From positions 4,288,001 through 4,352,000 of the forward strand of contig CAVWVQ010000003.1 in NCBI GenBank assembly GCA_963758525.1: a stretch of DNA of 64,000 bases. Direction: 5' to 3'. Source of the stretch: an uncultured Phycisphaerales bacterium. GTDB lineage: Bacteria > Planctomycetota > Phycisphaerae > Tepidisphaerales > Tepidisphaeraceae. Numbering within the stretch: position 1 is the first letter of the stretch; the number at the start of each line of letters is the position of its first letter. Both the position numbers and the translations under genes were made by a program. Under the pieces are notes generated by a model that ran no database searches, had not been told where the DNA came from, and saw nothing but the letters and a program-made list of their open reading frames with translations. Below, piece after piece: positions 2,804 to 34,115 of this stretch.

Positions 2804-2945
2804 CACTCACGTGAGTGTCCGCGTCAGAAGAGTGATTCGGAACCATTTGTAAGCAAATTCGCCGTTTTTTCCGGGCCCCCGGATCGGGGCTCCTGCCGCC
2901 CGGGCATGTCGCCCGGGACGCCATTATCAATCATGGAGGATTGCT

Positions 2946-4376: not shown

Positions 4377-4557
4377 GCGCCAAACTAGAGGACGGCGCGC
4401 TTCACCGGTACTCCTGCGGAGGAGGGGAGCCATTGATCTTACGGTGACGGTACGCCTCGAATACGATGAGGCGCCACGATCGCGGGCGGGACGATGTCGG
4501 GCACGACGCGGTAGCTGCTATTTAGGCACGACTCAAGGTCGTGATCGCACCTGGCAG

Positions 4558-5175
4558 GCTGTTAAGGTGACATCCATCTTTCTTGACGATGCTCATCCGC
4601 TGGATATATCATGCGACCATGCCCCGCACTTCTCGAGCAGCGATCGGCGGTCTGGCTTATCACGTTCTCAACTGCGGCAACGGCCGGCTGGAGATCTGGC
4701 GAGATACTTCGCCTGGCTGACCATCACGCACCTCAAGCGTTACCGTGCTCATTACCGTCGGACCAGCGGCCATCTGTATCAGGGCCGCTACAAGAGCTTT
4801 GTCGTCCCGGAGGACGGGCATTTGCTGACGCTGCTGCGTTGTGTGGAAGCCAATCCGTTGCGGGCGAAGATGCTGGAGCGGGCGCAGGACTGGCACTGGT
4901 GCAGCCTGGGCTGCGAGAAAGAGCTGGCACGAAAGCTGCTCGACGATTGGCCGATCAACCGTCCCCGGAACTGGACGGCGCTGGTCAACGAGCCGATCGA
5001 TCCCGCCGCTGCGAAACCGGTGGCGCTCAGCTTCGAGCGTGGCCGGCCGCTGGGCAGCGATCCTCGGACGCTTAAAATGGCCGGCCGAATGGGCCTGCAG
5101 CACACTCTGAATCCGCGAGGCAGGCCAAAATTGCGGAACGGTGACAAATAAAACGATGGATGTCACCTTAACAGC
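4558..5175 (+). mobile_element. RAYT-like Y1 transposase element, copy 1 (internal 139-bp deletion, non-autonomous)
   Basis: 21-bp perfect TIR GCTGTTAAGGTGACATCCATC / GATGGATGTCACCTTAACAGC; near-identical to 10074..10830 but lacks the segment between two GATCT microhomologies that encodes the HUH motif. Confidence 0.9.
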
Positions 5176-6227
5176 TTCCCCATGTTGGGGAATCGTTTCG
5201 GATCGGGCTGGATTGCGTTCAACGGTCCGCCCCGCGCACCCTGCCAGGCATCATCGATATTGATGTAAGTCCATCCGTGATTCGCCAGCCCCGAGTCTGC
5301 CATCGCGTGCGCGGATCGCAGAATCTTGCTCTGATCGACGTTGCCGCCCCAGCAATTCCAACTGTTCCATCCCATCGGCGGCGTGAGTGCGATCTGCTCG
5401 CCGGCCACGATCTTGAATTTCAACTCCGCCGCCCCGTTTGCATTGGTGGCGCGAAAGGTGACGGGAAATTCGCCTGCGCTCGCCAGAGCGCCGCTCACCT
5501 GCCCGGTAGTTGCGTCGACGCGGAGGCCCGCCGGAAGGCTGTCACCAGAGAATGTCATTGGGCGATCGCCGGTTGCGGGGATCGTGTAGAGAAACGGGTG
5601 AGCGGGCCGCACCCCGAAGAGCGTCGGCCCATTGATTCGAGGCGTCCGCGGAGGCGGAGGGGTGAGGATGTTCAACGTCGATCCGGGTGGATCGACCGCG
5701 ACCGGCCGCGTTCCGTCGAACTCAATCTTCGCATCGGCCCAGTCGGCGTGGCAGAATTGGTTGCCGTCTCCAACGAGTGCAACGAGCAGCGTCAGAGCCT
5801 TCACTCCCGACAGATTGACGTCCGCTTCTTCGGCGGGCATCCCGGCAACGAACGCCTTGCTCTGCCAAAGCAGCTTGCCGTCGCCAACGACCTGAAATTG
5901 AACTGCGTCAGACGTTTTGCCCGCATCGTCGTCGATCCCGACCCAAGCCGTCAGTCCCTTCGCGGACCCCGCGAGATCGACGCAAAAAATGCCGGCCGCG
6001 TGCGTGCCCACGCCATGATCGAAATGTTTTCCGGCAATGGAAAGCGGGTGTCCGTCGACCGAGCGGTCCGCTTGAGCCGCGCCCCAGTCCTGTTGAACCT
6101 TGTGCAGATCAAGTTCGTCGAGCCAAACGGAATCAGAGGCGCCCATCGCCGTTGAACACAGCAGCGACATCGCAAGAAGCACGACGGGGAAACACTTTCC
6201 ACGAATCATTGATGGAGACATTACCAC
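5163..6227 (-). pseudogene. NPCBM/NEW2 + Ig-like + GH27 alpha-galactosidase, 3'-truncated at the element TIR
   Basis: GVGTHA NPCBM motif, then ALTPPMGWNSWN and YINIDDAWQG (GH27); the stop codon lies inside the TIR. Confidence 0.85.
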
Positions 6228-9643: not shown

Positions 9644-10070
9644 GGGACTGTAACAAAATAACTTAAACAATTGGTCTGCAATTTGCATGGCTATGGACGG
9701 TACGTACACGGAGGTGCGTAACGTGAGCATCACGGTTCAATTCAAGTATGATACACTGGCCGGTGCGATGAACGAACAGTTTCGACGGCGTTGGGCTGGC
9801 TGCGAGGCACTTGCAATGGGCCGGGGCGGCGTCAGTATCGTCGCGGCGGAGACAGGGATGTCGCGTAATACTGTTCTGCGGGGGATCGCGGAGATTCAGG
9901 AACATTTGCCGGAGTTGGCTGGCCGGATTGGCCAGGGACGCATTCGACGGCCCGGAGGCGGTCGTCGGACGCGCGCCACCGAGGATGCTTCGCTGCTGCC
10001 CGACTTGCAGGCTCTGCTGGAATCTTCGACGCGTGGCGATCCGACCAGTCCCTTGCTGTGGACCGCCAAG
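9644..10070 (+). mobile_element. ISAzo13-family IS, left end plus truncated transposase
   Basis: End GGGACTGTAACAAAATAAC; ORF with RRRWAG.EA..GRGG..GRIRRPGGGR..RGDP.SPLLWT.K; cut by the RAYT-like element. Confidence 0.8.
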
Positions 10071-10073
10071 GAG

Positions 10074-10830
10074 GCTGTTAAGGTGACATCCATCTTTCTT
10101 GACGATGCTCATCCGCTGGATATATCATGCGACCATGCCCCGCACTTCTCGAGCAGCGATCGGCGGTCTGGTTTATCACGTTCTCAACCGCGGCAACGGC
10201 CGGCTGGAGATCTTCCGCAAGCCGGGGGACTTCCTGGCGTTCCTCGATTTGATGGTCGACGCCAAGGAACGGGCGGAGATCGAAGTCTTCGGCTTCTGCC
10301 TGATGTCCAACCACTGGCACATGGTGGTGCGGCCGCGTCGGGATCAGGATCTGGCCAGGTACTTCTCCTGGCTGACCAACACGCACGTCAAGCGTTACCG
10401 TGCTCACTACCGGCGGACCAGCGGCCATCTGTATCAGGGCCGCTACAAAAGCTTTGTCGTCCAGGAGGACGGGCATTTGCTGACGCTGCTGCGTTATGTG
10501 GAAGCCAATCCGTTGCGGGCGAAGATGGTGGAGCGGGCGCAGGACTGGCACTGGTCCAGCCTCGGCTGCGAGAAAGAGCTGGCGCGAAAGCTGCTGGACG
10601 ATTGGCCGATCGACCGTCCCCGGAACTGGACGGCGCTGGTCAACGAGCCGATCGATCCCGCCGCTGTGAAACGAATGGCACTCAGCTTCGAGCGTGGCCG
10701 GCCGCTGGGCAGCGATCCTTGGACGCTTAAAATGGCCGGCCGAATGGGCCTGCAGCACACTCTGAATCCGCGAGGCAGGCCAAAATTGCGGAACGGTGAC
10801 AAATAAAACGATGGATGTCACCTTAACAGC
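10074..10830 (+). mobile_element. RAYT-like Y1 transposase element, copy 2 (intact, 757 bp)
   Basis: Same 21-bp TIRs tightly enclosing a promoter and the transposase. Confidence 0.9.
10135..10806 (+). CDS. HUH Y1 (REP-associated tyrosine-like) transposase
   Basis: YHVLNRGN, CLMSNHWHMV (HUH), GHLYQGRYKS, RYVEANPLRA, W.WSS. Confidence 0.92.
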   Translation: MPRTSRAAIGGLVYHVLNRGNGRLEIFRKPGDFLAFLDLMVDAKERAEIEVFGFCLMSNHWHMVVRPRRDQDLARYFSWLTNTHVKRYRAHYRRTSGHLYQGRYKSFVVQEDGHLLTLLRYVEANPLRAKMVERAQDWHWSSLGCEKELARKLLDDWPIDRPRNWTALVNEPIDPAAVKRMALSFERGRPLGSDPWTLKMAGRMGLQHTLNPRGRPKLRNGDK

Positions 10831-11317
10831 TTCCCTAAAAGCCAATCAGCGTTGCAAGCAACCGAATCGCGCGCCGAACAGTAAGATCGACCCGCAGCAT
10901 CGCAACGATGGTTTGAGGAAGGCGCAAAAGCAAGGCGGCAAGATCGCTGAGACAATTGATAAGGATAATCAGAAACTCGATGAGCACGACCAAAATGAGG
11001 GGAAAAAGGCAGAGGACGACCAGAACGCAGCGAGAACTTCCGCTGACGAGTGGCAAGACTTGGAGGCGCAGATACAGCGCCTCCGGGACTACCAGAAGTC
11101 GCACCCCCTGCCACCTCCCAGACCAGCCCCAGCTCAGACTCCTAAGCCAAGTTCGTGGTTTGGGAATATTCGCGACTATCTGCATGACCACCTTCACGAA
11201 GATACGCCAGTTCTCAGAGGGGGCCAGCCGACTTTCCCGGGCGAGTGGAGCCCTGGATCTGGCACGGCTTGTCCGGATGCCGTCGGGATTCCTGATTTCA
11301 TCTTTGCACCAGCATAA
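10831..11317 (+). pseudogene. Putative orphan polymorphic-toxin C-terminal fragment
   Basis: Open frame with no start of its own, begins at the element TIR, tightly followed by a small TPR gene; Rhs remnants nearby. Confidence 0.4.
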
Positions 11318-14334: not shown

Positions 14335-15744
14335 ATGAGCACTATAAACACCAATGTTACGTCGCTCATCGCGCAACGCGCGTTGGCGACGAACAACAAA
14401 AATTTGAATACGAGCCTTGAGCGGCTCAGCACCGGTTTGAAGATCAACAGCGGCGCCGATGATCCGGCAGGACTCATCGCGTCGCAATCCCTCGGCGCCG
14501 AGCAGGTTGGTCTCCAGGCTGCCATCAGCAACGCCACCAGCGCGACGAACGTCATCGGAACGGCCGAAGGTGGTTTGAACGAAGTCAGCAACCTGCTGAC
14601 GCAGCTCAACGGCCTGGTCAACTCCTCAGCCAATACCGGCGGTCTGTCATCAGACGAAATCGCCGCCAATCAGCTGCAGGTCGACTCGATTCTGAGCACG
14701 ATCAACCGTCTGGCAGGGTCCACCACATTCAACGGGAATCACCTTCTTGACGGCACGCTGGACTACACCACCAGCAGCGCCGCCGCGTCGGCCTTCTCAT
14801 CCATTGCGGTGAATCAGGCGACTCTTCCGCAGAACAAGACCGAAAGCGTTGTCGTCAACGTCCTCAACAGTGCCACCGTCGGCAATGTTCTCTTCACGGG
14901 CGCAGCCACCGTCAGCGCCACCACGCTGCAGATTGCGGGCGCCCAGGGCACGCAGCAACTGAGCTTCGGCAGCGGCACCACCGTGGCCCAGATCGCCACC
15001 GCGGTCAACGCCTTGTCCTCGACCACCGGCGTCACTGCCTCAGCCACGGCCGGCAAGCTCAACTTCCTCGCGTCCGCCTCCGGGTCAAAGAACTACGTCT
15101 CGGTCCAGTCCCTGTCCGGCACCTTCGCCATCACCGGCGGAACCAGCGGCAAGGCGTTTGGAAAAGACGCGGTTGTGCAGGTCAACGGAGCCCAGGCTCA
15201 GGCCAACGGCACCGCCGTTCACTACAGCAGCAACAACCTGGATCTGAACTTCACGCTCAGCACCGCGCTCAATGGCGGCAAGAGCAAGACGTTTGGAATC
15301 ACCGGCGGCGGGGCGACGTTTGCGCTCGGCGCAACGGTTTCCGACAGCACCAACGCGAGCATCGGCATCAAGTCGGTGTCCACCGGAAGCCTCGGCGACG
15401 GCACCACCGGGTTCCTCAACACCCTGGGCTCGGGCGGCACGAACTCCCTGAGTGCCACCAGTCTGGTCAACGCGCAGAAGATCGTGACCAACGCGATCAG
15501 TCAGGTCGCTTCGCTTCGCGGTCGGCTCGGCGCGTTCCAGGACTTCACGATCGGTTCGACGATCAACAGCCTCAACGTCGCGTATGAAAACGCGTCGTCG
15601 GCCAAGAGCGCCATTACCGATACCGACTTCGCCGCGGAAACCGCCAATCTGACCCGCAATCAGATTCTTTCTCAGGCAGCCACCAGCGTGCTGTCACAGG
15701 CCAACGCGGCCCCTCAATTGGCCCTCAAGCTTCTCGGAGCATAA
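14335..15744 (+). CDS. fliC: Flagellin 2
   Basis: MSTINTNVTSL..RLSTGLKINSGADDPAG; C-terminal ITDTDFAAETANLTRNQIL. Confidence 0.97.
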   Translation: MSTINTNVTSLIAQRALATNNKNLNTSLERLSTGLKINSGADDPAGLIASQSLGAEQVGLQAAISNATSATNVIGTAEGGLNEVSNLLTQLNGLVNSSANTGGLSSDEIAANQLQVDSILSTINRLAGSTTFNGNHLLDGTLDYTTSSAAASAFSSIAVNQATLPQNKTESVVVNVLNSATVGNVLFTGAATVSATTLQIAGAQGTQQLSFGSGTTVAQIATAVNALSSTTGVTASATAGKLNFLASASGSKNYVSVQSLSGTFAITGGTSGKAFGKDAVVQVNGAQAQANGTAVHYSSNNLDLNFTLSTALNGGKSKTFGITGGGATFALGATVSDSTNASIGIKSVSTGSLGDGTTGFLNTLGSGGTNSLSATSLVNAQKIVTNAISQVASLRGRLGAFQDFTIGSTINSLNVAYENASSAKSAITDTDFAAETANLTRNQILSQAATSVLSQANAAPQLALKLLGA

Positions 15745-16927: not shown

Positions 16928-16949
16928 AAAAAAGCCGCTCTGGGCAAGA
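16928..16949. repeat. att core, left junction
   Basis: AAAAAAGCCGCTCTGGGCAAGA, identical to 27728..27749. Confidence 0.92.
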
Positions 16950-17018
16950 ATTTTATTTTGTGCTTGACACGGTATCGCCAGTTGCGTTTTGGCCAAAACT
17001 GTGGCAAGAACTGACGAC

Positions 17019-17222
17019 TCAATTTTCGTCCCTAATTGCTTTGATTTCCGTTTCGATAGCGGTCAATTCACCTTCGGTCATGCGGTGATTTTTCCGCTCT
17101 GCCAATTTCGGCACTCCCCTGTAGACACCGAGATAAAATTGTTCTTCGGTGAATGCTCCGATTTTCTTTTCGATGATCCCCTTCGCTTCCCCCAGCGTAA
17201 ATCTGTTTCTCGCCTTTTTCAT
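17019..17222 (-). CDS. Small basic protein (candidate excisionase / DNA-binding protein)
   Basis: 67-aa MKKARNRFTLGEAK.. next to the att site; function inferred from size and position only. Confidence 0.45.
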   Translation of the reverse strand: MKKARNRFTLGEAKGIIEKKIGAFTEEQFYLGVYRGVPKLAERKNHRMTEGELTAIETEIKAIRDEN

Positions 17223-17799
17223 CTTGTTCCCTTTCCGTCGGCCTGCATGGCGGCGATGGTCATTTCTTCGTCGGCGGCGTTCAGTGTTGCGGCAAACTCT
17301 GCCATTCGCTGGTCTTCGGCCATACTGGTGAGCGTCGCTGCCAGTTGCGCGTTCCGCACGATCCACGCGGAGAAAACCCGTAGTGCATCGAACTGGTTCC
17401 TACCTCAAATACTTTCGCCGAATAATCTGTAGCGGCGTCATCGTCCCGACACATCGATTGCGGCCAATTATCTGGGGGATCGGCAAAAAAGGAAATCCAC
17501 ATCTTCGCGCGCGGTTAAAAATCGTAATTGCCGAAAATATTCAGGGTTACGGCGGTTCCTCTCCGTGCTAATTCCTGCGGAGTTGCACAGAAGGGCTTGT
17601 TTTGTAGGTTCAAAATAAAATGTTGCGCACAGAAGGCTTGTTTTCTACGTCTGCGGGAATGCTCTTGGGGTGCCCCGCGGAGTGACTGGCCGGGGTGTCT
17701 CGCCTCGGTGCGTCGGCCCCGCCAGCGTTGCGGTTTCCCGGCCCCACACCGCGAAACGATTGGATACTTGGGTCGTTTGTGCGATTGGATACTTCGCGA

Positions 17800-18180
17800 T
17801 CATGCGCCGGTGGCGGGCTCGTCGGGGATTTGCTTTTTTAATCCGTGGCACACGGGGCATTCCAAGTCGTTTCGGCCCGTTGCCCCTCGGTTCCCATAGC
17901 TCTTTGGTGGTGGTGAACCCGTGCCCCCGCAAGCGGGGCAATTTGGCAATGATGGGTCCACAGTTCCAGCGGCAACCACCTTGTCAATTGCGATTTTTGC
18001 TTCCGCAAGGGTCTGCGCCGTGGGAATCTGGATCAGGTATCGCGTCCGTCCACGGGCTGGCCGGATAATTCTGAATACCGTTCTAGGCTGCCCGCTTTCA
18101 CCTGCTTCGGGTGTCTCCCGTACTTGCTGAATGAAGTAGCCGTTGTGCTCAATCTGCTTGCCGATATTCTCTGTTTTCAT
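17800..18180 (-). CDS. Small protein with DnaJ-type zinc finger
   Basis: CPACGGTG and CPVCHG motifs. Confidence 0.6.
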   Translation of the reverse strand: MKTENIGKQIEHNGYFIQQVRETPEAGESGQPRTVFRIIRPARGRTRYLIQIPTAQTLAEAKIAIDKVVAAGTVDPSLPNCPACGGTGSPPPKSYGNRGATGRNDLECPVCHGLKKQIPDEPATGA

Positions 18181-18444
18181 TCTGCAAAGCTTATGCGTCC
18201 GCAAGGCCGATGCCCAGCCCCTAAAAGACTCACCGGGGGCCGGTTTCAGTCCTGAACGGGGCGCAAACGGCACTGTATTTCCGGTCCGGGTTGTCGGCGT
18301 CAATCGATTTGGCTACGCGCTGCTCGCCGTGGGTGGCAGCCGCGCCTGCTCGCTGCTTCAACAGCGTATTCAGCCTTCTTCCGCGAAATTTGACAGTAGA
18401 GTAGCCCACAAGATACTAGACGATCACAACGAAGGGATCGACCC

Positions 18445-19677
18445 ATGAACCGCAATGCATTCGCTGGGATCGTGGCACTTCTGCTTGTTCTGGCTTGGCC
18501 AAACCTACAGCCCACCTACGCCGGAGACGACGACAAACAGATCGTTGACTCGTTTAAGGCGTTCGTTCCAAAATTCATTGAGGGCTGGAAAAAGCATAGT
18601 ATTGATGTCTACAAAACTCCCGCTGTAGTCACGCACATTCGATTCGACGTAAAAAAAACGGACAGTGCGGTGAATCCGCTTGTGGGCGTGTTGGAATGGT
18701 GGCAGCCGAGCGCTACCGGGAAGTGCGACGACGAAAACCACGACGACCGGTCTCTAACCATACAAATCAGCGACGGGAAATGGGTGGTCACCGAGGCTAT
18801 TCTCACGATTCATATTTCCGGATTTCCACCGATGCATTTAGACCCGCCCGATGCTGAAACCGACACGATGAAAGAGGTTGCCGCAGACGTGCAGAAAATC
18901 GAGGAACCAGTCTCAGGAGGGGAGACGAAGGTTTCCGAAGACGATGAAGCGGCGTTTCAACGGTATCGTAAGGCGGCAGAGGCTGGGACTGCAGTGGGAA
19001 TGTATAATCTCGCAGGGCTGTACGACCTCGGTAAGTATGTAGGCCGGAATGATGCAGAAGCTGTTAAATGGTATCGCAAGGCATCAGATGCCGGCCTGGC
19101 AGTAGCGATGAACGCCATGGGCCGCATGTACCAGCTCGGCAGGGGTGTTCCTCAGAATGATGCAGAAGCTGTTAAATGGTATCGCAAGGCATCAGATGCC
19201 GGCCTGACAGTCGCGATGAACGCCATGGGCTGCATGTACCAACTCGGCAAGGGTGTTCCCCAAGACCATGGCGAGGCGTTAAAATGGTATCGCAAGGCAG
19301 TGGACGCCGGGGACGCGGACGCAATGGTAAACGTGGGTGTCATGTATGAAGACGGCTATGGCGTCGAAAAGAACGATGCGGAGGCGGTTGCGTGGTATCG
19401 TAAGGGAGCGGAAGCCGGAAGCGTTGGGGGGATGAATATCCTCGGACTGTGGTACCGGAACGGAAGAGTTTTGGCCCACGACGACGGCGAGGCAGTGAAA
19501 TGGTTCCGTAGTGCAGCAGTTGCTGGCAACGCGGACGCAATGAATAACTTGGGCTTCATGTACGCCACAGGCCATGGCGTGGTGCAGGATCAAAATCAGG
19601 CCGAAGTGTGGTTTCGCAAGGCCGCCGCGGCCGGAAACGAAATCGCAAAGGCTAATCTGTTGAAATTGGGGCGTTAG
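18445..19677 (+). CDS. Secreted Sel1-like repeat protein
   Basis: Signal peptide; repeated A.KWYRKA..G...AMN.LG.MY..G.GV. Confidence 0.92.
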   Translation: MNRNAFAGIVALLLVLAWPNLQPTYAGDDDKQIVDSFKAFVPKFIEGWKKHSIDVYKTPAVVTHIRFDVKKTDSAVNPLVGVLEWWQPSATGKCDDENHDDRSLTIQISDGKWVVTEAILTIHISGFPPMHLDPPDAETDTMKEVAADVQKIEEPVSGGETKVSEDDEAAFQRYRKAAEAGTAVGMYNLAGLYDLGKYVGRNDAEAVKWYRKASDAGLAVAMNAMGRMYQLGRGVPQNDAEAVKWYRKASDAGLTVAMNAMGCMYQLGKGVPQDHGEALKWYRKAVDAGDADAMVNVGVMYEDGYGVEKNDAEAVAWYRKGAEAGSVGGMNILGLWYRNGRVLAHDDGEAVKWFRSAAVAGNADAMNNLGFMYATGHGVVQDQNQAEVWFRKAAAAGNEIAKANLLKLGR

Positions 19678-19701
19678 CTGCGAGCATGGTAACGTGGGGG
19701 A

Positions 19702-19914
19702 ATGGAATGCACGATGACGTTCCGCGTTAGCGATCAGGAGAAGCTCGACAAGGTTGTAGGCCGACTCTTGGATCACGCTGTCAATAGTGGCCATATGCCG
19801 GCGGGTGAAGCCAAGGAGATAATGGAAAAGCTGCTGGGTGAAATTGATACTTTGACCGATCCCGAAGTTGCGTTCATTCTTAATGGGGACCAAGGGGAAC
19901 AACCAGTGGTGTAG
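19702..19914 (+). CDS. Hypothetical protein
   Basis: 70-aa acidic ORF with GGGGG SD. Confidence 0.45.
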   Translation: MECTMTFRVSDQEKLDKVVGRLLDHAVNSGHMPAGEAKEIMEKLLGEIDTLTDPEVAFILNGDQGEQPVV

Positions 19915-20035
19915 AACGTCACGGCCAATCCGCCTTCTCACCAGTTCCCGAAATTCTTCATCGGACATGTTCTGCAAGGCGCGAACCGCCCGCTCACGAG
20001 TTTAATTTGTGGCGATTCAGCAGTAGAATGATGCC

Positions 20036-20251
20036 GTGCCGAAAAAGACGATCAAAGTGGGCGATACGGTTATTCATGCTGAGAGTCACTATCGGGGAGT
20101 GGTCACAGCGGTTCATTCAAACGACACGATTAGCATCCGGCGCAGCGCCGGAATAACGACCTGGCGCAAAAGCGACGTTCATGCGATCGCTACCGCCGGT
20201 GTGGTATCCACGAAAAAGAAGAGGAGCCCAAAGAAGACCAAAAGCGGCTAA
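20036..20251 (+). CDS. Small basic KOW/SH3-like protein
   Basis: IKVGDTV..GVVTAV motif and Lys-rich tail. Confidence 0.5.
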   Translation: MPKKTIKVGDTVIHAESHYRGVVTAVHSNDTISIRRSAGITTWRKSDVHAIATAGVVSTKKKRSPKKTKSG

Positions 20252-20650
20252 GGCAGGCGACAGGTGGCGAAAACCTTCTCCCTTTTTGCGTAAAGACGAA
20301 ACGCAATTCCTTCCCGTCGCCCATTGGGCTGGGGCCGAGCTTTTCGACCGGCTCTCGTGTCCCACTGCGGGATCGCGCCAGTGACGGGATGGCGTTGGCA
20401 GCGCCCACGTTCGCTTCCCTCGCCGCGGCTCGGTTTCATCTGCTACGGCATCATCACGCGCGCAGCTACGGCGGCGGATCGTCACGGCATGATGCAAGAG
20501 ATAATCTCCTGGCGGGGCAAATAAATCTGGCGGCCGAATTTGTTCGGCCTGGGGGGCTTACGTCGCGTATGTCGCGTATAATGCTTCTGGTTCTTTTGGC
20601 GTCGGCTCCGCGCGTCGCGTTGTCCTGCCACAGAACGGCAAGGAGGTTTT

Positions 20651-20842
20651 ATGAAGATCATGTTAGTCGGCGGGTCATTTGATGGCGAAATAGATTTGCC
20701 TGACTCAACAACCGTGGCACAGCTTCCCGATGTTCTTGTGTGCCGCTCAACTCTGGACTTTCCACACAACAACATTGAAATGCGGCGGGAAGAATATAAG
20801 TTGCATGATCCCCGCTCCACGCCAGCTATTTACAAGCATTAA
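20651..20842 (+). CDS. Hypothetical protein
   Basis: Strong SD AGGAGG; LVGGSFDG N-terminus. Confidence 0.55.
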   Translation: MKIMLVGGSFDGEIDLPDSTTVAQLPDVLVCRSTLDFPHNNIEMRREEYKLHDPRSTPAIYKH

Positions 20843-20855
20843 GAGAGTCAGCAAC

Positions 20856-21893
20856 ATGAAATTCCGAAGGCAACCTGGACCTGCGTGTCTCGTGGCTGTA
20901 TTCATCGCGCTCATAATCATCTCAGGCTGCAAGAGCGAAGAAGAAAAGGCGCGAAAAGCAAGAGTCGTGCGCGAGGGGCGAGATTCGGCGTACGCTAAAG
21001 TCGTGGACCTGATAGAAAAGGGTGACCAAGCTGAGAGTGCCGGTGAACATCAATCCGCTATCGACAGCTACTTGTCCGCCGAGGACGCGGCGGAGGACCA
21101 AACGAGACAAAATGGTGATGCGAGATTTGCCGCTAAGTATGAAGAGGCTCGTCAGAAGTCTGACAAGGCACGTTCCGCCGACACAGCGGCGCTTGATAAA
21201 AAGCAAGAGCTTGAGCGTCTCCAGCAACTGCAATTTGCTCAGTCCGAACGGATCAAACGTGAGGCCAATGAAAGCCAAAGCGCGGACATTTTTACTGCCG
21301 CCCGCCAAGGCTATAGGGAACGCATTGAAGAACTGCTAATGGTCAGGCCAGAGTTGGTCAACGAGGAAGAGAACGGAGAAACACCTCTGTTCGAGGCGCA
21401 CACGAAAGAAACTGCCGAGCTGTTAATCAAACACGGCGCAAATGTCAAATTCGGTTCGGGTTTTAATAGAACGCCACTTCACGCGGCAGCCGAAAACGGC
21501 TGCGTTGACGTTGCAGAGGTTCTATTGCAACATGGTGCCGACGTAAATGCGCAATACGTCTACGGAACGCCTTTGCGCGCTGTGTTCCCCATCATGATTT
21601 GCGATTGGGCGCGACTGTCTCACGATGAACACGTGATATCGGACCAGCAACGTGCGATGTGCAGATTCCTTGTGGCTCACGGCGCTGATGTCAACGCCGA
21701 GTGTCGGTCGGAGACGTTGCTACATGAATTTGCATCAAGCAGCCGACCCCCTGAAGGATATGAAATCGATCTTGATTCTGTCCAATTCATCGTTTCGCTC
21801 GGGCCGTCGCCTTCCGTAATTGATGAGGCATATCGGCAAGCGGTGGTTGATGGAAATCAAGATATTGCCGACCTGCTTCGCGCGAAGAAGTAA
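20856..21893 (+). CDS. Ankyrin-repeat lipoprotein
   Basis: Lipobox ISGC; GETPLF, TPLHAAAENG..LLQHGADVNA repeats. Confidence 0.88.
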   Translation: MKFRRQPGPACLVAVFIALIIISGCKSEEEKARKARVVREGRDSAYAKVVDLIEKGDQAESAGEHQSAIDSYLSAEDAAEDQTRQNGDARFAAKYEEARQKSDKARSADTAALDKKQELERLQQLQFAQSERIKREANESQSADIFTAARQGYRERIEELLMVRPELVNEEENGETPLFEAHTKETAELLIKHGANVKFGSGFNRTPLHAAAENGCVDVAEVLLQHGADVNAQYVYGTPLRAVFPIMICDWARLSHDEHVISDQQRAMCRFLVAHGADVNAECRSETLLHEFASSSRPPEGYEIDLDSVQFIVSLGPSPSVIDEAYRQAVVDGNQDIADLLRAKK

Positions 21894-22467
21894 TTGCGGT
21901 ATCGTCCGACGGGTGGCGCTTTCGTCTTGCTGCGCCCGCATCATCCGCCCTCCCCTTGCGGCCGTGCCCCGTGGTTCCACGGCCACCTTTGGCCCACGGA
22001 CCCCGCGAGTCCAGTTGAGTCAAGAAACTCCTCAATCTTCAAAAAATGGTCAAAAAACGTGGAAAACGGCGGTCGGTCTTTCGGGGGAAAAAGTTGTAGA
22101 TATTTCGACTACCCCTTGGGGTCAACGGCGCTGGTGTGGTGAATGATCGGCGCGCGGTCCCTCGGATTTCCCTGGCTCGCGTCGCCCCCGAATTTGGGGA
22201 CACTTCACACAATGATTGCGAGTCGTCTTCTGGGGTCCGCGAAGCCAGTTCCCTTTTAGGATTTTCTACGGAAAAAATGCGCAAGATGGCGTGCGGTCGG
22301 TTGCGGTGTGTCATTTTCCTATTTCACCTCCCCCCTGGTGGTTGGATGCCACGCGGCGTTCTGTGCCTCGCCGGCGAAGCGGGTAGGTGTGGTGCCCGTC
22401 TACTGCGGTGGTGCAGTCGCGGCGGTGGGGACGACGTGGGAGCGAGTGAGGCAAGAACGGAATCGGC

Positions 22468-22577
22468 GAAACGAGCGTGAAACGGTGGTGAAAGCGGGTC
22501 GAAACCGGGGTGAATCGGGGGTGAAGCTCGGTCGAAACCGGGGTGAAGATGGGGCGAAATGGTGGTGGAAGTGGGGT
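22468..22577 (+). repeat. Ten degenerate 11-bp tandem repeats (consensus about GAAACCGGGGT)
   Basis: GAA recurs at exact 11-bp period from 22468 to 22556, with a tenth variant unit at 22567. Confidence 0.85.
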
Positions 22578-22722
22578 GCCTGTTTCCGCCATCCACCGAG
22601 AGAGTCACCAGCGTTCACTTGCGGGCGCGCGCAATTATGTCGTGCCGATGGATTCGGCCCGACAGGGGGCGGGTGATTTCATTCCTACTCCCCCTGTAGG
22701 AGCGAATGTTCGTAAACCCTTG

Positions 22723-25386
22723 TCAATACTCATTTCCCTTTCCCACCGTCCCCCCTCTTTTCTCAAAAACACCCCCGACGGTGGGAACCGTGGAGGCTAC
22801 TTTTTCATAACGGAGGGGCCTCAATTTATCATCAGCCATGTGAGTATGAACCCGCGAAATGCCCTGGGGGGCGAATTTCTCAAACCACTTCGCCGGCTCC
22901 CCATGATCGACTTTCTTACGATTGCGGCGGTGCTCAAAGTCTTTGTTATCCATCATCGGGAAGTGGGTGTTATTGTATCGCGCCTCATGCTCAGCGGCGG
23001 GGACATCATCTCCTCGGCGCAGGTGCCGTAGATTCTCATAGCCATTGCTATTTTGGATGATCTGGTACTTTCCCACCTTGAGAAGTCCCCCCTTTGAGTA
23101 CGTCATTGACTCGGGAAACACGTCGGACCCGTCGAGGATACGATCTAAGAGAGTGTAAGAGGGATGCGTTTTCCTATCCCGGTTCGTTTTCCCTTCCTTG
23201 CCCCGCAGGGCATACACTGGCCCCTCTGTTGATATATTCAGGGCGTAGTCTGATTTCGACCAATAGGCAGCGCTCGCGAATGAGTTCCTTGCTTTATGTT
23301 CCAATTGAAACTCCAGCTTCAACCCATAGGGTTTCCAGAAATCATCAACGTGCATCATCGCCAATTCATCGACATTGGACGGTGGGTTGAGGCAGTCACC
23401 CTCATCCCACGCCTGCCCCCTCATGCCCGTGTAGCCTCGTTGTTGATTCTTCGCATCCCTCCATTCCCATTGCCGGCTCAGGATGTCCAAGCCCGGCTTT
23501 TTTCCCCGCCAATAGCACACTTTGCCCGGAGTGTAGATGCCGCCATCGGTGATACATTGACGGAGTCCAAGCGCCTTGGCCAGCATCCATACCCCAACTC
23601 GGGCCTTGGCGGTTATCACATTGCCCATGATGGAATTGCCAACGGAGAAATAGCGGGAAGCAAAGTCACCGTAGAGCGTATTCACGATCAGCTTCAACAT
23701 CGAATCCAGCCCGGCATACCGCACTCGTTCATCCTCAGAGACCGTCTTATCCTTTCCACGGTGCTTGTACTCCCGGCGACGATCTACCAATCGACCGATG
23801 AACCCTTCCAGCGGCACCCCGTACCATGCTCGCGAGCGACTGTCCCACGAATCTCCATTCTTTCGCGTCCCATATGAACCGTTGTGCCTCAGAACATCCT
23901 CGGACCACTCTTTCACACCCGCACGCCGATCGGACTTGAGATAGGCTGCGGCGGTCACAATCTCAAGGTTTTTAATCCCCGCCCATTCGGAATTGGAGCA
24001 TACTGCTCTCAATACTTTGAGAACGTCGGACGTGATGACGCCGTTCTCTATCTGCTTTCGAAGCATTACAAAATCACTGTTCACGTCGGATTCATCGTCA
24101 ACGGCAACGTTGCGGATGATGTCGCCAACCTTGGCCAGTTTGGAAAAGATCAAGTCTTGCTGATACTCCAACAGGCCCGATACGGTCGCACACCAGAAGC
24201 CGTCAATCAATTCATCCTGAAAACGGTCGAGCCACTTTCCGAAAGTTATCGGTTCATCATTCGGCGATCTGCTGAATGAATACGGTAGTCCTACCGGATA
24301 GATCAAGCCCCGCAGACTGGAACCATAGCATCCGGCAATATCAACATCCAAGCCTGGCCCCGCCCTGTATTCAAATGGGTTCTCATTCAAGCATCGCCCA
24401 CCTTGAACAAGTGCGTTGTAAACGCGCGACTCTGTAGACGGGCGTGATCTCCACCAGCGTATACCTGAGCCGTCAAGAGCGGTGAACATGAATCGTGCGT
24501 CGTCCATGAACCAGTTGAAGTCTTCGCCAACGTCACTGAGCGATTCCATCGTCTTGTACCTCTTTGTGGCACTGATGAAGGCCCATTGATCCTTCTTGTG
24601 TGCGCGCGCGTCGGGGTCGAGTATGCCCAGTTTGCGCACGCAGAACTTCATGGCCACTTCATCCGGTCCAGCCTGTGAGTAAAGCCATCGCTCGAAAGTC
24701 TTGGCCACCAACGATCCCACGGTCATCGGGATGTCATCTTCGGTCCACACTGTCTCGCCCATTCCAAGGCATTCACGTTGAACCGTATTGAAGAGAGAGA
24801 TAAATTCACGATGAACCTGGAGGAGCACGCGGGCATCGTCAATCGCGTATCTCAGCCATTCCTCGGGGGATTCCATCAGCCCAGTCCACATACAGGATTT
24901 GTATTTGTCCATGCTGCTCTTGTTCACCATTGGAATGCCAAGGGCTTCGGCGAATTTCACCAGTTTCGTTTTTCCGGCCCATCCAACGATGTCCTTCAAG
25001 TGAACACAATCGACGTTCCCGGAAAGATTGTTTCGTTGGCGGATGTCGCCGGCCTCGATAGCGGCTTTCCATCTCTCCCATCCGATGGCATATTCAACGT
25101 CTTTCGGTGTGAAGAACATTAGTAGACGGCACGGCCCTTCCCAATAGCGACCCAGCAGATTCGTAGTGTCATCGCGACTAGTATAGATGAGAGTGGCATC
25201 ATTTTCGTGTGCGGTCATGTTCAGGCGTGCCCGTATATATTCTGGAACATCATCCCGCATGAATACGGTGGTGCCATGTTCTGCGGATGCGAACGCCGTG
25301 CTTATCCATGGATCGGATAAGGATGTATCCCATTCGCTATCGGTGGCGATAAACGGCCCCTTCGATTTCCTCTTCTTCTTTACCAT
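22723..25386 (-). CDS. Family B DNA polymerase with 3'-5' exonuclease, piPolB-like
   Basis: ExoI DSE, ExoIII YAIDD, GGRC, motif A DIAGCYG, motif B KLIVNTLYG, ITAKAR, motif C ITDG. Confidence 0.88.
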   Translation of the reverse strand: MVKKKRKSKGPFIATDSEWDTSLSDPWISTAFASAEHGTTVFMRDDVPEYIRARLNMTAHENDATLIYTSRDDTTNLLGRYWEGPCRLLMFFTPKDVEYAIGWERWKAAIEAGDIRQRNNLSGNVDCVHLKDIVGWAGKTKLVKFAEALGIPMVNKSSMDKYKSCMWTGLMESPEEWLRYAIDDARVLLQVHREFISLFNTVQRECLGMGETVWTEDDIPMTVGSLVAKTFERWLYSQAGPDEVAMKFCVRKLGILDPDARAHKKDQWAFISATKRYKTMESLSDVGEDFNWFMDDARFMFTALDGSGIRWWRSRPSTESRVYNALVQGGRCLNENPFEYRAGPGLDVDIAGCYGSSLRGLIYPVGLPYSFSRSPNDEPITFGKWLDRFQDELIDGFWCATVSGLLEYQQDLIFSKLAKVGDIIRNVAVDDESDVNSDFVMLRKQIENGVITSDVLKVLRAVCSNSEWAGIKNLEIVTAAAYLKSDRRAGVKEWSEDVLRHNGSYGTRKNGDSWDSRSRAWYGVPLEGFIGRLVDRRREYKHRGKDKTVSEDERVRYAGLDSMLKLIVNTLYGDFASRYFSVGNSIMGNVITAKARVGVWMLAKALGLRQCITDGGIYTPGKVCYWRGKKPGLDILSRQWEWRDAKNQQRGYTGMRGQAWDEGDCLNPPSNVDELAMMHVDDFWKPYGLKLEFQLEHKARNSFASAAYWSKSDYALNISTEGPVYALRGKEGKTNRDRKTHPSYTLLDRILDGSDVFPESMTYSKGGLLKVGKYQIIQNSNGYENLRHLRRGDDVPAAEHEARYNNTHFPMMDNKDFEHRRNRKKVDHGEPAKWFEKFAPQGISRVHTHMADDKLRPLRYEKVASTVPTVGGVFEKRGGTVGKGNEY

Positions 25387-25415
25387 AACGAATCCCCCTG
25401 GTACTTTGCACAATA

Positions 25416-25448
25416 GAAAAACCCAGCGGGTAGACCGTTGGGTTCTTC
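25416..25448 (-). terminator. Terminator-like hairpin 30 nt upstream of the polB start
   Basis: Minus strand GAAGAACCCAACGG-TCTAC-CCGCTGGGTTTTTC. Confidence 0.6.
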
Positions 25449-25676
25449 AATAGCTGGGATTCGTTCGGCGATGTGCCTATGTATTATTATCGTCCAATAG
25501 AGAATCTTCCTGTACGTCCCAGCTATGGTTCGTCAACGGGTCGTCCCGATAATATGTAATCGTCACTTTATGAAAACGTCAATAGCAATGTCATAAAGAT
25601 TAACGTTGTCAAGACATAGTTTCAGTATGCCGCCATGAAAGGCAAAACCCCGCTGGAGGTCGCGGGGGGTGTGGGG

Positions 25677-26042
25677 TCATTTTGTTATTATGTTTTCGGG
25701 GGCGTCCGACTGCTCGGGGAAAAACCTGGTTAGTTGCCGCGCCGACTTTAGAAAAGCTTCCTCGTTGTCGTAAGCGTTGCAAAGGAATATGTATTCAGCG
25801 GGCGGATTGGCTACTAACTTGAATCCGTTGTTTTGCAAAAGCAGCCGGATATGGGGGTTGTCCGCCTTTACCAGCAGAGAGACCATCCAGTACAAGGTCG
25901 GCTTATTGGCGTAGACCGGAAAGGTTATGCGGTATTTCCTTTGTTCGGTCAGCGCATCCGCAGACATTTCAAGCAACTGCTCCAAAAATGCTGGCTCGAT
26001 ACGAGAAGCCAGCCCGTTAAGTATGCGTTCGACAGTTTTCAT
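25677..26042 (-). CDS. Hypothetical protein
   Basis: 121-aa ORF between integrase and polB, followed by a GC hairpin and T4. Confidence 0.6.
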   Translation of the reverse strand: MKTVERILNGLASRIEPAFLEQLLEMSADALTEQRKYRITFPVYANKPTLYWMVSLLVKADNPHIRLLLQNNGFKLVANPPAEYIFLCNAYDNEEAFLKSARQLTRFFPEQSDAPENIITK

Positions 26043-26146
26043 AAACTGTGTGCAGGGGTATTTTGGTCAGTGAGAACCGATTCCCCTATACGTGCGACTC
26101 AAGGGCAGGGAAACCACTTACCGCCTTCCCTCCTGTTGGTGCAACG

Positions 26147-26180
26147 AAAAGGCACGTATGCCATTTTGGCATACGTGCCT
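26147..26180 (-). terminator. Perfect 14-bp hairpin downstream of the integrase
   Basis: AGGCACGTATGCCA-TTT-TGGCATACGTGCCT with a short T-tract on the minus strand. Confidence 0.65.
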
Positions 26181-26207
26181 ATATGGAGTGATGATCTGGC
26201 CAGCGGA

Positions 26208-27581
26208 TCACGCGGCGCTGCTCGTGGCGGCGGTGGCGGCGCTCGGGAAGTAATGACGATGCACGGCGTCACAAGCGGGGCGGACGATCTCGGGGTTTCT
26301 CAGAACGTAGTGGTCCTGCATCCCGCAAGCGTGCCCGGCAAGAATCTTCGGAAGTCGGGCGTCGGTGGTCCCCTGGCAAGCGGCGGTGTACGCTCCATCG
26401 CGCAGGTGACTGAATGAAACTTCAGGGCATCCTGCGGCCTTGGCCAGCTCGTGGAAACTCGCGGCCCTGGTGGTGGCGGAAGCGTAGCGTGTGCCATTCC
26501 TGCTGGCGAAAAGGTACTTCTCGTTGGGGCGCAGGGCACGGATGGCGGTGGTGGTCTCGGGCCATAACGTCGCGGCCCTGGGGATACGCTTGCGCTCCGT
26601 CTTCGCTCGGATCATCGCCAGTGCGCCGGCCTCAAGGTTCACGGTTTTGCGGGGCAACGGGCACAGCTCGCCCAGCGTCATGGCGGTATTCAAGCCGAAA
26701 AGAATCCACGCCCGCCACTCTGCTGATGCCACGCTCAGAATCCTGTGAAGGTTTTCTCGGCTGATAGGTTTCGGATCGACGGCGGGGGCGGCCTGTTCGG
26801 TCCAGAGAAGTTTCAAGCGGTCCAGCGTCGTGGTTATCTCCGTGGCGTTACTGGTGGGGTCTTTCTTCCCGAACGAAATCACGGCTTTGATCTTGGAGTA
26901 CATGAAAATCTTCGTGCCCGCGCTGGTGTATTTCGGATCGGACTCGACGGCGGTTCTGTAGGTATGAATCACTTCGTTAGTGAGGTCCGCCAACGTCTTC
27001 GCGCCCGTCATCGCGATGAAGCCGCTGAACACCCGCGTCGCTGCCGATTTATCTTTCGACGGGTTGGCGGTCTGATAGAATTTCAGGATCGCGGCCAGCT
27101 TGATCGACGGGCCGGCGGGGGCGAAATCCTTGTAGCGGGCAATCTCGGGTAGTCCAGTCATCCTGGCGACGTACTCGGGGCGTGTCAGAAGCATTTCGCG
27201 GACGTGATGCCACAAGGTCCACTCGTCCACCCGCTGGCCTACTTGAACCGGGCGCTCCTCGTTGGGTTGGATCGTAATCTCTTGCAGCGCGGTTCCAGCC
27301 TGCACGGCTTGGGTGAAGTCGTCGATTGCGCGGAGGGTGGGGGCGTATCCGTTAGCCTCGGCAACGGGGCGTCTGATGGTGATGATGTTCCCGGTGGGGG
27401 CGTGGTCCCGTTCCCATTCACGGAAGCGGTTCACGGCACGGCGTTCATCGGTCTCCGAGAATCGGAAGCCAGTGGCCACGATGCGCCAGCGGCCATCGTG
27501 TGACTGTTTGGCGAGTCCTGGTATGATTTCGCCCCATGTTGTCTGATACGGTTTCTGCTTGCGTCCGGTCTTCATGTTCAT
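26208..27581 (-). CDS. Tyrosine recombinase / integrase
   Basis: C-terminal RAKT, FSHLRD, ILAGH, MQDHY; adjacent to the att site. Confidence 0.88.
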   Translation of the reverse strand: MNMKTGRKQKPYQTTWGEIIPGLAKQSHDGRWRIVATGFRFSETDERRAVNRFREWERDHAPTGNIITIRRPVAEANGYAPTLRAIDDFTQAVQAGTALQEITIQPNEERPVQVGQRVDEWTLWHHVREMLLTRPEYVARMTGLPEIARYKDFAPAGPSIKLAAILKFYQTANPSKDKSAATRVFSGFIAMTGAKTLADLTNEVIHTYRTAVESDPKYTSAGTKIFMYSKIKAVISFGKKDPTSNATEITTTLDRLKLLWTEQAAPAVDPKPISRENLHRILSVASAEWRAWILFGLNTAMTLGELCPLPRKTVNLEAGALAMIRAKTERKRIPRAATLWPETTTAIRALRPNEKYLFASRNGTRYASATTRAASFHELAKAAGCPEVSFSHLRDGAYTAACQGTTDARLPKILAGHACGMQDHYVLRNPEIVRPACDAVHRHYFPSAATAATSSAA

Positions 27582-27727
27582 GCCTCGGCGGTAAGCGGGT
27601 CAACGGATCGGCCTTACACGCGGGGCATTATCAGGGCACTTCGGTTTTTGCTGGTTTTGCTTGGCAAAAACCTTGGCAAAAACTCAAAAACACCGTTCAT
27701 AAGTCGTTATTTGACAAGGGGCGCAAT

Positions 27728-27749
27728 AAAAAAGCCGCTCTGGGCAAGA
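27728..27749. repeat. att core, right junction (inside an intact terminator)
   Basis: Identical 22-mer; here it completes the hairpin AAGCCGCTC-TGGGCAA-GAGCGGCTT. Confidence 0.92.
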
Positions 27750-27876
27750 GCGGCTTCGAATGGGGCTGTTGAAGAGTTCTTCGGGTTGTGGGAGGAAAAA
27801 CTCTTCACATCGGGGGGAAGAATGGGCAAATTGTAAAAGTGTCCAAATACCTGCTTCGAAGCAGTCAGTCGGACGA
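27728..27876 (-). ncRNA. Putative ~150-nt small RNA (integration target)
   Basis: No convincing ORF; two stem-loops plus intrinsic terminator; -24/-12-like promoter upstream. Confidence 0.6.
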
Positions 27877-27886
27877 GAAACTATTC

Positions 27887-27902
27887 AACAACGCTTGTGC
27901 CA
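27887..27902 (-). promoter_or_regulatory. Sigma54-like promoter
   Basis: TGGCACAAGCGTTGT versus consensus TGGCAC-N5-TTGC; palindrome TGTCGC-N8-GCGACA at 28043..28062 as candidate enhancer site. Confidence 0.55.
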
Positions 27903-28168
27903 TCATTGTGCCTGAGGCTTCGATCTGCGGTGGCACCGGATATAAAAACTTACCGCCCAATTATTTATGTGAATTCGCATCGCAGCTAAGATTCTGTCAC
28001 CCCCAGCAAGTGCCACAAACCGCCACGACACGATGGCTGGAATGTCGCAGTGAAACGCGACAGCGTCGTTCGGCGGGCCCATGTTTAGCGGCGACAGCGT
28101 GATAACTGGTCGGACGAGCCGCGATCTGCTATGTTTTTCGGTAGTCCTCCCACTCATTCCACGCTGAG

Positions 28169-29086
28169 GTGATCGTGCGCGTACTTGTGACCGGCGGAGC
28201 GGGGTTTGTCGGCTCTAACATTGCCAAGCGGTGCGTCGCCGACGGATACGCGGTGACTGTTCTCGATGACTTTTCGTCCGGTGAATGGCGGAACCTCATT
28301 GAGTTCCAGGGGGATGTCCTGACCCTCGATCTGGCTGGGAATGTCGGCGCGCTCGCCTCGGCCCAGCCGTTCCAATTGATCTTTCATCAGGCGTCGATCA
28401 CCGACACCACGGTGATGGATCAGCGCAGGATGATGCACAACAATTTGGAAGGGTTTCGCCAACTCCTTGACCTGGCGGTGAAATGGCAGAGCCGCGTCGT
28501 CTGGGCGAGCAGCGCAGCCACCTATGGCAGGGGGGCATCGCCCAACCGGGAGTCGCAGCCGCCCGCTCCGCTGAATGTCTACGGCTTCTCGAAGTTGGCA
28601 ATGGAGCGCTTGTCGCAGCACTACGAGACACGGCTCAAGCACCCGATCGTTGGCCTGCGGTACTTCAACGTGTATGGGGCCGGCGAAGCCCACAAGGGCA
28701 AATTCGCGAGCATGATCCATCAACTGGCCAAGCAGATGCGCGCTGGCAAGCGGCCGAGAATTTTCACCGATGGGGAGCAGAAGCGAGACTTCGTGTACAT
28801 CGACGATGTCATCCACGCCAACCTCGCCGCCGCACAAACCAATGATAGCGGCATCTACAACATCGGGAGCGGCGCGGCCGCGAGTTTCAATGAGGTAGTG
28901 AAGGAATTGAATCGCGTGTTGAACACTGACTTGCCGCCGGAATACTTTCCCAATCCATACGACTTCTTTCAAACCTGGACGGAAGCCGAGCTGAGCCACG
29001 CACGCGAAGGGCTTTGTTACGATCCGAAGTTCGACCTCACAAAGGGGATCGATGCGTACCATGCATCCGGAGCGCTGGGGATCTAA
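28169..29086 (+). CDS. hldD: ADP-L-glycero-D-manno-heptose 6-epimerase
   Basis: GGAGFVGSN, ASSAATYG, PLNVYGFSK, LRYFNVYG.GE.HKG..ASM. Confidence 0.88.
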   Translation: MIVRVLVTGGAGFVGSNIAKRCVADGYAVTVLDDFSSGEWRNLIEFQGDVLTLDLAGNVGALASAQPFQLIFHQASITDTTVMDQRRMMHNNLEGFRQLLDLAVKWQSRVVWASSAATYGRGASPNRESQPPAPLNVYGFSKLAMERLSQHYETRLKHPIVGLRYFNVYGAGEAHKGKFASMIHQLAKQMRAGKRPRIFTDGEQKRDFVYIDDVIHANLAAAQTNDSGIYNIGSGAAASFNEVVKELNRVLNTDLPPEYFPNPYDFFQTWTEAELSHAREGLCYDPKFDLTKGIDAYHASGALGI

Positions 29087-33606: not shown

Positions 33607-33988
33607 GGGGGCGATCGGTTTCGACCGGATGGCTACGGTGGCAGTGGCATGCCCAGGACGCACAGTTGGCCTGGTTAAACACCTGTGCAAACATTAACTG
33701 CTGACACCAACAGTGTTGCAGGCCGAATCGGCTTCGCGGCCGGTCCGGTTCGAATGGCTGCCTAATTTAGGTGGTCTGGGCATAGTGCGGACGCCCGCGA
33801 CGCGCTAGCCCAAACAGCGGGCTGGTTCCTTCATTCGGACGTCGATGAAGGAATGAGAAACAGACGTCTGGGTTTGGCCGAAGGGTGTCGCTCTTCGTCG
33901 GTCAGATCGAGATTAAAAGAACGACTACGCATGTAGAGGCTGCCATCCGTGTTATCTTGGGACGAGGGTTCAATTCCCTCCGCCTCCA
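33607..33988 (+). ncRNA. ssrA: tmRNA
   Basis: 5' GGGGGCGAT..TTCGAC; 3' GAGGGTTCAATTCCCTCCGCCTCCA; tag ORF 33700..33765 ADTNSVAGRIGFAAGPVRMAA*. Confidence 0.97.
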
Positions 33989-34115
33989 TTCGACTCGCTG
34001 CGCTCGCTCATGGCGAGCCAGCGAAGGAAAGTTAGGAACACCTGAGCGAGTAACGACGCTCCGATGTAAGAAGCAGCGAGTCGAATGCCCTGAGTAAGCA
34101 ACGCGCATCGAATGG
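33989..34115. repeat. GIY-YIG-associated palindromic repeats
   Basis: TTCGACTCGCTGCGCTCGCTCA followed by inverted TGAGCGAG..GCGAGTCGAA and TGAGT..TCGAATGG. Confidence 0.65.

Follow-up and report, generated by a model that had tools for sequence, protein, structure and literature searches.

Several bacterial small RNAs (sRNAs) are transcribed from sigma54 promoters under dedicated NtrC-family regulators, like GlmY under GlrR and the Qrr RNAs under LuxO; GlrR recognizes the site TGTC-N10-GACA, and Hfq is needed by both, either directly or by way of GlmZ. C-rich boxes are a feature of other sRNAs, RoxS and RepG among them. In Myxococcus, Pxr has been described as a triple stem-loop sRNA with a sigma54 promoter and an enhancer site (PMC5568312), and Hfq-independent staphylococcal sRNAs pair with ribosome-binding sites through long unpaired C-rich stretches (PMC2790875). 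The integration attachment (att) sites in non-coding RNA genes reported in PMC12540744 lie in tRNA or tmRNA, csRNA and ffs genes. Sigma54-dependent sRNAs with an enhancer-binding protein, C-rich sRNAs that do not need Hfq and att sites within non-coding RNA genes are all, in this way, already described. In the Planctomycetota, post-transcriptional control is nearly a blank, and an RNA with its promoter, an activator site and a candidate sensor would offer a direct handle on it. The predicted sigma54 regulons of PMC12316311 include Planctomycetota and the main text of that paper has no mention of sRNAs. Our search of the open-licence literature returned neither a report of the RNA described here nor any sRNA family from its class, although the supplements of non-coding RNA screens could hold it.

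The window, that is, the whole stretch of 64,000 nucleotides analysed here, contains on its minus strand a predicted sRNA of 149 nt (27728..27876), whose 5' end is placed from the promoter (predicted +1 at 27876). A preliminary description of this DNA had listed a promoter-like TGGCAC-N5-TTGT motif and about 150 nt with a stem-loop, a pyrimidine-rich linker, a 13-bp stem exposing the loop CUCCCACAACCC and a terminator. The motif is present at 27902-27888 and all the other parts could be located on the same strand: a 5' hairpin (hairpin 1, 27841..27874); the pyrimidine-rich, single-stranded linker 1 with the conserved CCAUUCUUCCCCC (27807..27840); hairpin 2 with a covarying 13-bp stem (27770..27807) and the loop CUCCCACAACCC at 27794-27783; linker 2 with the conserved GCCCCAUU (27758..27769); and an intrinsic terminator found by a terminator scan (27728..27757), with a near-invariant UGCCC loop. 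The RNA strand folds with a z-score of -5.7, and none of 200 shuffled sequences was equally stable. Its divergent neighbour on the plus strand is hldD, for ADP-glyceromanno-heptose 6-epimerase (28169..29086; TIGR02197, 284 bits with a cut-off of 274.6). We consider it reasonably probable that this locus encodes a conserved non-coding RNA of three hairpins and about 150 nt, transcribed from a sigma54-type promoter, which would act on mRNAs as a repressor or an activator by pairing of its unpaired C-rich segments, with no need for Hfq; its terminator would, in the host, be the attachment site of a 10.8-kb island.

The RNA is conserved among relatives of the host. By BLAST, it was detected in 20 of 36 genomes from the host's own family and in none of 24 belonging to other families, and a covariance model found homologues, four of them weak, in 88 of 140 genomes of this single Phycisphaerae family (44 of 72 among the best assemblies). 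The same 88 genomes were recovered with a second, broader covariance model; these family tallies take in one unpublished genome, G004, on which no claim rests. Four genomes carry two or three dispersed copies. Two weak matches outside the family, in G257 and G301 (1/130 and 1/150 genomes, respectively), lacked the motifs and the promoter and were dropped. A strict pattern of the RNA matched 120 metagenome stretches, gave no hits in viral contigs and had no match in plasmids and phages; two named contigs bearing the RNA carry the label Phycisphaerales. The predicted length of the homologues ranges from 96 to 251 nt (median 149). In an alignment of 89 copies, which was fitted to the model, two-sided changes occur at 19 of the 21 modelled pairs and in both modelled stems, with 95.9% of the cells paired as compared to 81.2% after shuffling and at most 65% after sliding. 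An unfitted MAFFT alignment of 19 sequences still showed two-sided changes in 11 of the 21 pairs. The unpaired motifs are also kept (CCAUUC in 70/89, CACAAC in 60/89, CCCCA in 70/89 and UGCCC in 88/89 copies), and linkers 1 and 2 carry a near-duplicate motif. For the 5' hairpin the fold is conserved (z < -2 in 48 of 75 homologues) and the sequence is not. All these data suggest that the RNA likely represents a new family of sRNAs, belonging to a kind already described, from one Phycisphaerae family.

It would be very surprising if the RNA encoded a small peptide or belonged, as a diverged member, to an RNA family already known. In 45 of the 89 homologues, linker 1 is followed by an AUG-UGA start-stop, but it is lost in the other half, no ORF is conserved among the homologues and the longest one has fewer than 10 codons in 43 of 75. 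With regard to known families, only the tmRNA reached the gathering score when Rfam was run over the 64-kb window, where the best match at the RNA had 18 bits (E 0.51), and Rfam 15 covariance models gave no match at E <= 0.5 over the RNA in 20 homologous loci. The preliminary description had asked for an Rfam search and for homologues with covariation, naming a known RNA family or a conserved small ORF as what would speak against the RNA; the structure turned out to be conserved in relatives and neither of the two adverse findings appeared.

The location of the RNA beside hldD could point to a cis-acting element instead, either an attenuator or leader of the downstream gene or a DNA-level control region of the divergent hldD. 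In fact, hldD is the divergent upstream neighbour at 54 of 95 homologous loci, and a radical-SAM gene follows the RNA on the same strand in nine. Nevertheless, hldD is missing upstream in 37 of the 91 loci with enough sequence, the genes downstream vary in identity and strand and are often convergent, and the dispersed copies in four genomes do not fit with a cis role. An antiterminator alternative fold is absent and the covariation supports an RNA structure, so we regard a cis element as improbable and a separate sRNA as the preferred reading.

The sigma54-type -24/-12 element of the RNA (27888..27902, minus strand) is conserved in 75 of 94 homologous loci at a consensus of at least 8/10, as compared to 86 of 1694 control windows (5%); by a relaxed score that has no control set, 94 of 101 metagenome loci also have it. 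Upstream of it lies an array of TGTC/GACA half-sites (28025..28096, minus strand), which are predicted activator sites and include the palindrome TGTCGC-N8-GCGACA at 28062-28043 that had been noticed in the preliminary description. This palindrome is real, but another dyad that overlaps it, GACA-N12-TG(T/A)C, is better conserved in the homologues. GACA-N12-TGTC was the commonest of 1600 spaced dyads tried (25 of 87 upstream regions), lying mostly at -135 to -146, and in another 13 of the 87 regions the second half is TGAC in place of TGTC. TGTC-N12-GACA, found in 15 of 87, joins two GACA-N12-TGTC dyads. In the host, the dyad is inside 28048-28025, at about -144 from the -24 box, and has one half-site in common with the palindrome. 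When promoter and upstream activator site (UAS) matrices trained on the relatives only, leaving out the host's own RNA locus, were run over the genome, this locus ranked first of 1255 candidates (41.1, the next one 29.4). The host genome encodes rpoN and several enhancer-binding proteins, and the RNA is likely made from a sigma54-type promoter. The earlier idea of an enhancer-dependent sRNA is therefore borne out by comparison, as a conserved, structured and non-coding gene of sigma54/enhancer type, but the RNA itself is a prediction. Sigma54-like promoters were also seen ahead of groEL and a yciF-like gene (G000 C3:1644899 (-) and 1645897 (-), and L392), with a different upstream dyad.

The RNA shares with GlmY and Qrr the sigma54 promoter and the NtrC-family type of regulator, and the GlrR half-site words are the same as those found here. 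However, the spacing and order differ (GACA-N12-TGTC), Hfq was found in none of the 141 genomes searched and there is no Rfam match. The likeness to Pxr (PMC5568312) extends to the three stem-loops, sigma54 with an enhancer, restriction to one lineage and the presence of paralogues in some genomes, but neither Rfam nor sequence comparison gave a match and the phylum is another one. Moreover, Pxr adjoins the gene of its regulator, nla19, whereas the candidate regulator of the planctomycete RNA is 0.53 Mb away from it.

This candidate is a conserved NtrC-family regulator (G000 C3:4845806-4847203). The fourth-ranked promoter and UAS site of the genome is directly behind it and ahead of a gene for a zinc-ribbon-like protein of 75 aa (G000 C3:4845376-4845603; L311:3374-3601 (-)), an arrangement with a sigma54 promoter that is conserved. 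The zinc-ribbon gene was found in 103 of 140 family genomes; its product belongs to no known family and an atlas search gave it no name. Half-site words, which were picked after inspecting the data, are about threefold enriched upstream of both the zinc-ribbon promoter (3.33 vs 1.01 in shuffled sequence, n=27) and the RNA promoter (2.85 vs 0.93, n=75), as compared to 0.71 vs 0.47 at other sigma54-like sites of the genome (n=51); at the zinc-ribbon promoter the half-sites do not preserve the N12 spacing. Among the 88 RNA-bearing genomes scored, which include kin that are not independent, the promoter scores at least 9/10 in 66 of the 75 that carry the regulator, the zinc-ribbon gene or both; of the 13 with neither gene, 4 reach that score. 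Five genomes without regulator and zinc-ribbon gene were tested; rpoN is kept in all five, and their best match to the regulator is a paralogue of 40-49%. An hldD tree of 51 rows places two of the promoter-less groups apart from each other; a third genus has no hldD in this tree. Because the genera without the regulator mostly lose the RNA promoter, the NtrC-family regulator is the likely activator. The correspondence is incomplete in both directions: the regulator occurs in 26 genomes where no RNA was detected, the RNA in 17 that lack the regulator, and G014 (86% complete) and G110 (58% complete) keep the promoter with the regulator absent. In the genera without the regulator (loci L115, L118, L123, L137, L139, L143, L144, L146, L149 and L154) the RNA core stays, but most of the loci have lost the sigma54 element, with AT-rich DNA immediately upstream. 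A replacement of the promoter is possible in these genera.

A histidine kinase with a Tll0287/heme-Cache domain (PF11845, above cut-off) and a CxxCH motif is encoded divergently from the regulator (L311:5324-6979, plus strand), adjoins it in 26 of 28 loci and has the CxxCH motif in 22. A conserved TGAC-N4-5-GTC-like motif overlaps the predicted -10 box of the regulator gene, and this position suggests that the regulator may be autoregulated from it. According to PMC12889525, Tll0287-like heme-Cache domains act like sensors of NO when they are joined to signalling modules; planctomycetes are not mentioned in the available text of that paper. From phylogenetic profiles, which are correlative, the activator of the RNA is likely the NtrC-family regulator paired with this kinase, and the RNA is possibly under a heme-based gas sensor. 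The regulator would bind the GACA/TGTC array and turn the RNA on, with nitric oxide or redox state perhaps being the signal of the kinase. If true, this would make the RNA one of the first outputs to be named for a heme-Cache kinase; that the domain senses NO is a recent proposal (PMC12889525).

As for the function of the RNA, Hfq was found in 0 of 141 genomes, in a search that detected its control in 5 of 14. The most accessible segment of the RNA is linker 1, with an opening cost of 2.7 kcal/mol, and the ribosome-binding sites of the host are of the AGGAG/GGAG type. With RsaE and RNAIII of Staphylococcus (PMC2790875) the RNA has in common a 5' hairpin, a terminator, unpaired C-rich motifs and the lack of need for Hfq, but the sequences are unrelated, the control is by sigma54 here and pairing to Shine-Dalgarno sequences is putative. 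Since this build matches that of the Hfq-independent staphylococcal sRNAs and the host uses AGGAG/GGAG sites, base pairing is favoured: the transcript of about 150 nt from the sigma54-type promoter would pair with mRNAs, most likely through linker 1, without needing Hfq, and the variable 5' hairpin would shield its 5' end. The anti-Shine-Dalgarno role that the preliminary description gave to the loop of hairpin 2 fared poorly, as the CUCCC half is conserved at 56-84% per column, with 75-89% for ACAACCC, and no target emerged for it. A scan of 5745 host genes, defined with a crude gene caller, left no outlier that survived a conservation check, and complements of the seed were not enriched at start codons over shuffled seeds in the one genome analysed. 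The leader of an ECF sigma gene (not conserved in 5 loci), a pilC-like leader (site in 2/29) and the zinc-ribbon leader (-6.2 vs -6.6 kcal/mol for shuffled sequence) were rejected as targets. Of 5 genomes checked for a FixJ-like candidate, 1 had a match, a 14-nt complement ahead of a small ORF was at chance level in the host scan, and mcsB and hslV were further matches.

These results bear on another reading, in which the RNA is real and sigma54-driven but acts as a protein-binding decoy of the CsrB/CrcZ kind, with GCCC(C)AUUC, CCCACAACCC and UGCCC as sites for a protein that binds C-rich RNA. The short C-rich motifs, four in number and repeated, could just as well bind a protein, and the near-duplicate motif of the two linkers, the near-invariant terminator loop, the absence of Hfq and the failure to find an mRNA target would all fit with it. 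Against it, no partner protein has been identified, and long unpaired C-rich stretches are the signature of pairing in the staphylococcal sRNAs (PMC2790875). A sponge for CsrA, of the CsrB/RsmY type, was rejected: csrA genes are present in the host, but the RNA has no looped GGA, its only one being within the non-conserved 5' stem. On balance we find a decoy unlikely and keep base pairing with mRNAs as the favoured function.

In the host, the terminator of the RNA is likely also the end of an island. A 22-bp repeat is found exactly at only two places in the 6.47-Mb assembly (BLAST E 1.9e-4 genome-wide): the copy on the RNA side (27728..27749) covers the terminator loop, the 3' arm and the U-run, and the far copy (16928..16949) is without the 5' arm of the hairpin. 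The repeat matches the terminator variant of the host; it begins immediately ahead of a 7-base loop region and extends as far as the 3' end. tRNA-loop att sites likewise run from the loop to the 3' end. Between the copies are 10.8 kb (16950..27727) with a G+C content of 0.548, as compared to 0.61 and 0.595 in the flanks, and with a cargo that includes Sel1-repeat and ankyrin-repeat proteins. A tyrosine integrase of 457 aa (26208..27581, minus strand; PF00589, phrog_216) starts 147 bases from the RNA-side repeat. The core had been described as the 3' half of the terminator, which is right as far as it goes, but it is slightly longer, adding the loop and the top three bases of the 5' arm. The terminators of the RNA side and of the predicted empty site fold alike and the far copy cannot fold so; integration would therefore leave the RNA whole, and the claim that it restores the terminator agrees with this comparison. 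A tRNA/tmRNA-type integrase would recombine at the hairpin loop and deliver an identical 3' end, so that the terminator survives.

Could the repeat be a chance or captured duplication and not an att pair, with the ends of the island elsewhere? A second case is absent among the homologous loci, where no relative with the same flanks as the island was found, and neither an empty site nor excision has been seen. Nevertheless, the only other copy in the genome is 10.8 kb off, the two enclose DNA of low G+C content, and the integrase starts 147 bases from one of them; in addition, arm-type-like short repeats flank both copies, and the core is surrounded by an inverted repeat once the circle is joined. 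This makes a non-att origin of the repeat a poor prospect, and an island inserted into the RNA terminator, in the host genome alone, is likely. The non-tRNA attB of the preliminary description stands in that an att repeat lies in the RNA terminator together with an integrase island, but it is a one-off site and not a hot spot, since homologues do not neighbour integrases. Recombinases occurred in three of 216 other RNA-anchored loci (96 from genomes and 120 from metagenomes, scanned with a local tyrosine-recombinase profile), none at the RNA terminator: in L101 at tRNA-Glu, in L200 upstream beside the tmRNA and in L116 at 1.8 kb downstream with no repeat. L116, which comes from a family genome, also contains a 23S rRNA gene (1733-5499) with a match to a group I intron (RF00028). 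Downstream duplications of the terminator of at least 13 bases were absent from the genome loci (51 of 94 with at least 10 kb), and those of at least 14 bases from the metagenome loci (45 of 121 matches with at least 1 kb). With no tyrosine integrase or repeat at the terminator in any other RNA locus examined, over the lengths covered, the RNA was rejected as an integration hot spot.

Relatives of the integrase are present in 37 of 140 family genomes and gave no hits in the viral and metagenome scans. A tRNA or tmRNA lies within 1.5 kb at 19 of 29 fetched loci, one further locus has a tRNA-like 3' remnant, and the RNA is at none of the 29. The simplest reading is a recent target change of the integrase onto a look-alike hairpin. 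As in the non-coding RNA att sites of PMC12540744, the duplicated 3' part keeps the RNA gene whole; here, however, the core lies in the terminator hairpin of an sRNA restricted to one lineage, and the case comes from a single genome. A literature search for RyeB as a precedent found no paper. The att use is a minor addition, suggesting how an integrase that targets tRNA genes could shift to a hairpin of similar appearance. The tmRNA of the window (33607-33991, plus strand; tag ADTNSVAGRIGFAAGPVRMAA) is free of islands here, and tmRNA is used by related integrases elsewhere.

The island also encodes a divergent, piPolB-like family-B DNA polymerase of 896 aa (22723..25413, minus strand), in which ITDGG replaces the DTD motif; I-T-D-G-G is invariant among 15 aligned relatives, and the PolC motif of piPolB is of the SxTTDG type (PMC5695915). 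The predicted fold is that of family B, the top fold matches being archaeal RNA-primed PolBs (TM ~0.35). The protein is below the Pfam and NCBIfam cut-offs, and a PDB sequence search with this single protein gave no match. It has 72 relatives, the named ones from Planctomycetes and Cyanobacteria, and none in 300 genomes of the class. With pipolins the island shares the threonine in place of the first PolC aspartate, a tyrosine integrase, terminal direct repeats and no detected phage structural genes (PMC5695915, PMC11551731), but the target is a predicted sRNA, primer-independent DNA synthesis is putative here, and KH-X8-KTRG is partial, with a conserved HK and a later RG at longer spacing. 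Because this motif fits only in part, we call the island pipolin-like and not a pipolin. The polymerase group is probably a pipolin lineage of planctomycetes and cyanobacteria, and the main texts of PMC5695915 and PMC11551731 name neither group. A wider scheme, which we offer as speculation and rate as rather doubtful in its entirety, would have an NO-sensing kinase with a c-type-heme Cache domain and its NtrC partner drive, through sigma54, a family-wide Hfq-independent riboregulator, that is, a gas-to-sRNA circuit of the Planctomycetota in which the RNA would have passed to a different promoter wherever the sensor disappeared; the terminator hairpin of the RNA would stand in for the T-arm of a tRNA and would have captured an integrase of the tRNA type from a new pipolin lineage.

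Elsewhere in the window, two related elements at 4553-5180 and 10070-10835 have terminal inverted repeats of 28-29 bp and stretches of 92-99% identity, and are likely small insertion sequences. Also seen, at 1-4376 and 14335-15744, were a fliW-like gene, csrA and two paralogous flagellin genes; the paralogues are 11.4 kb apart, with DNA of lower GC between them.
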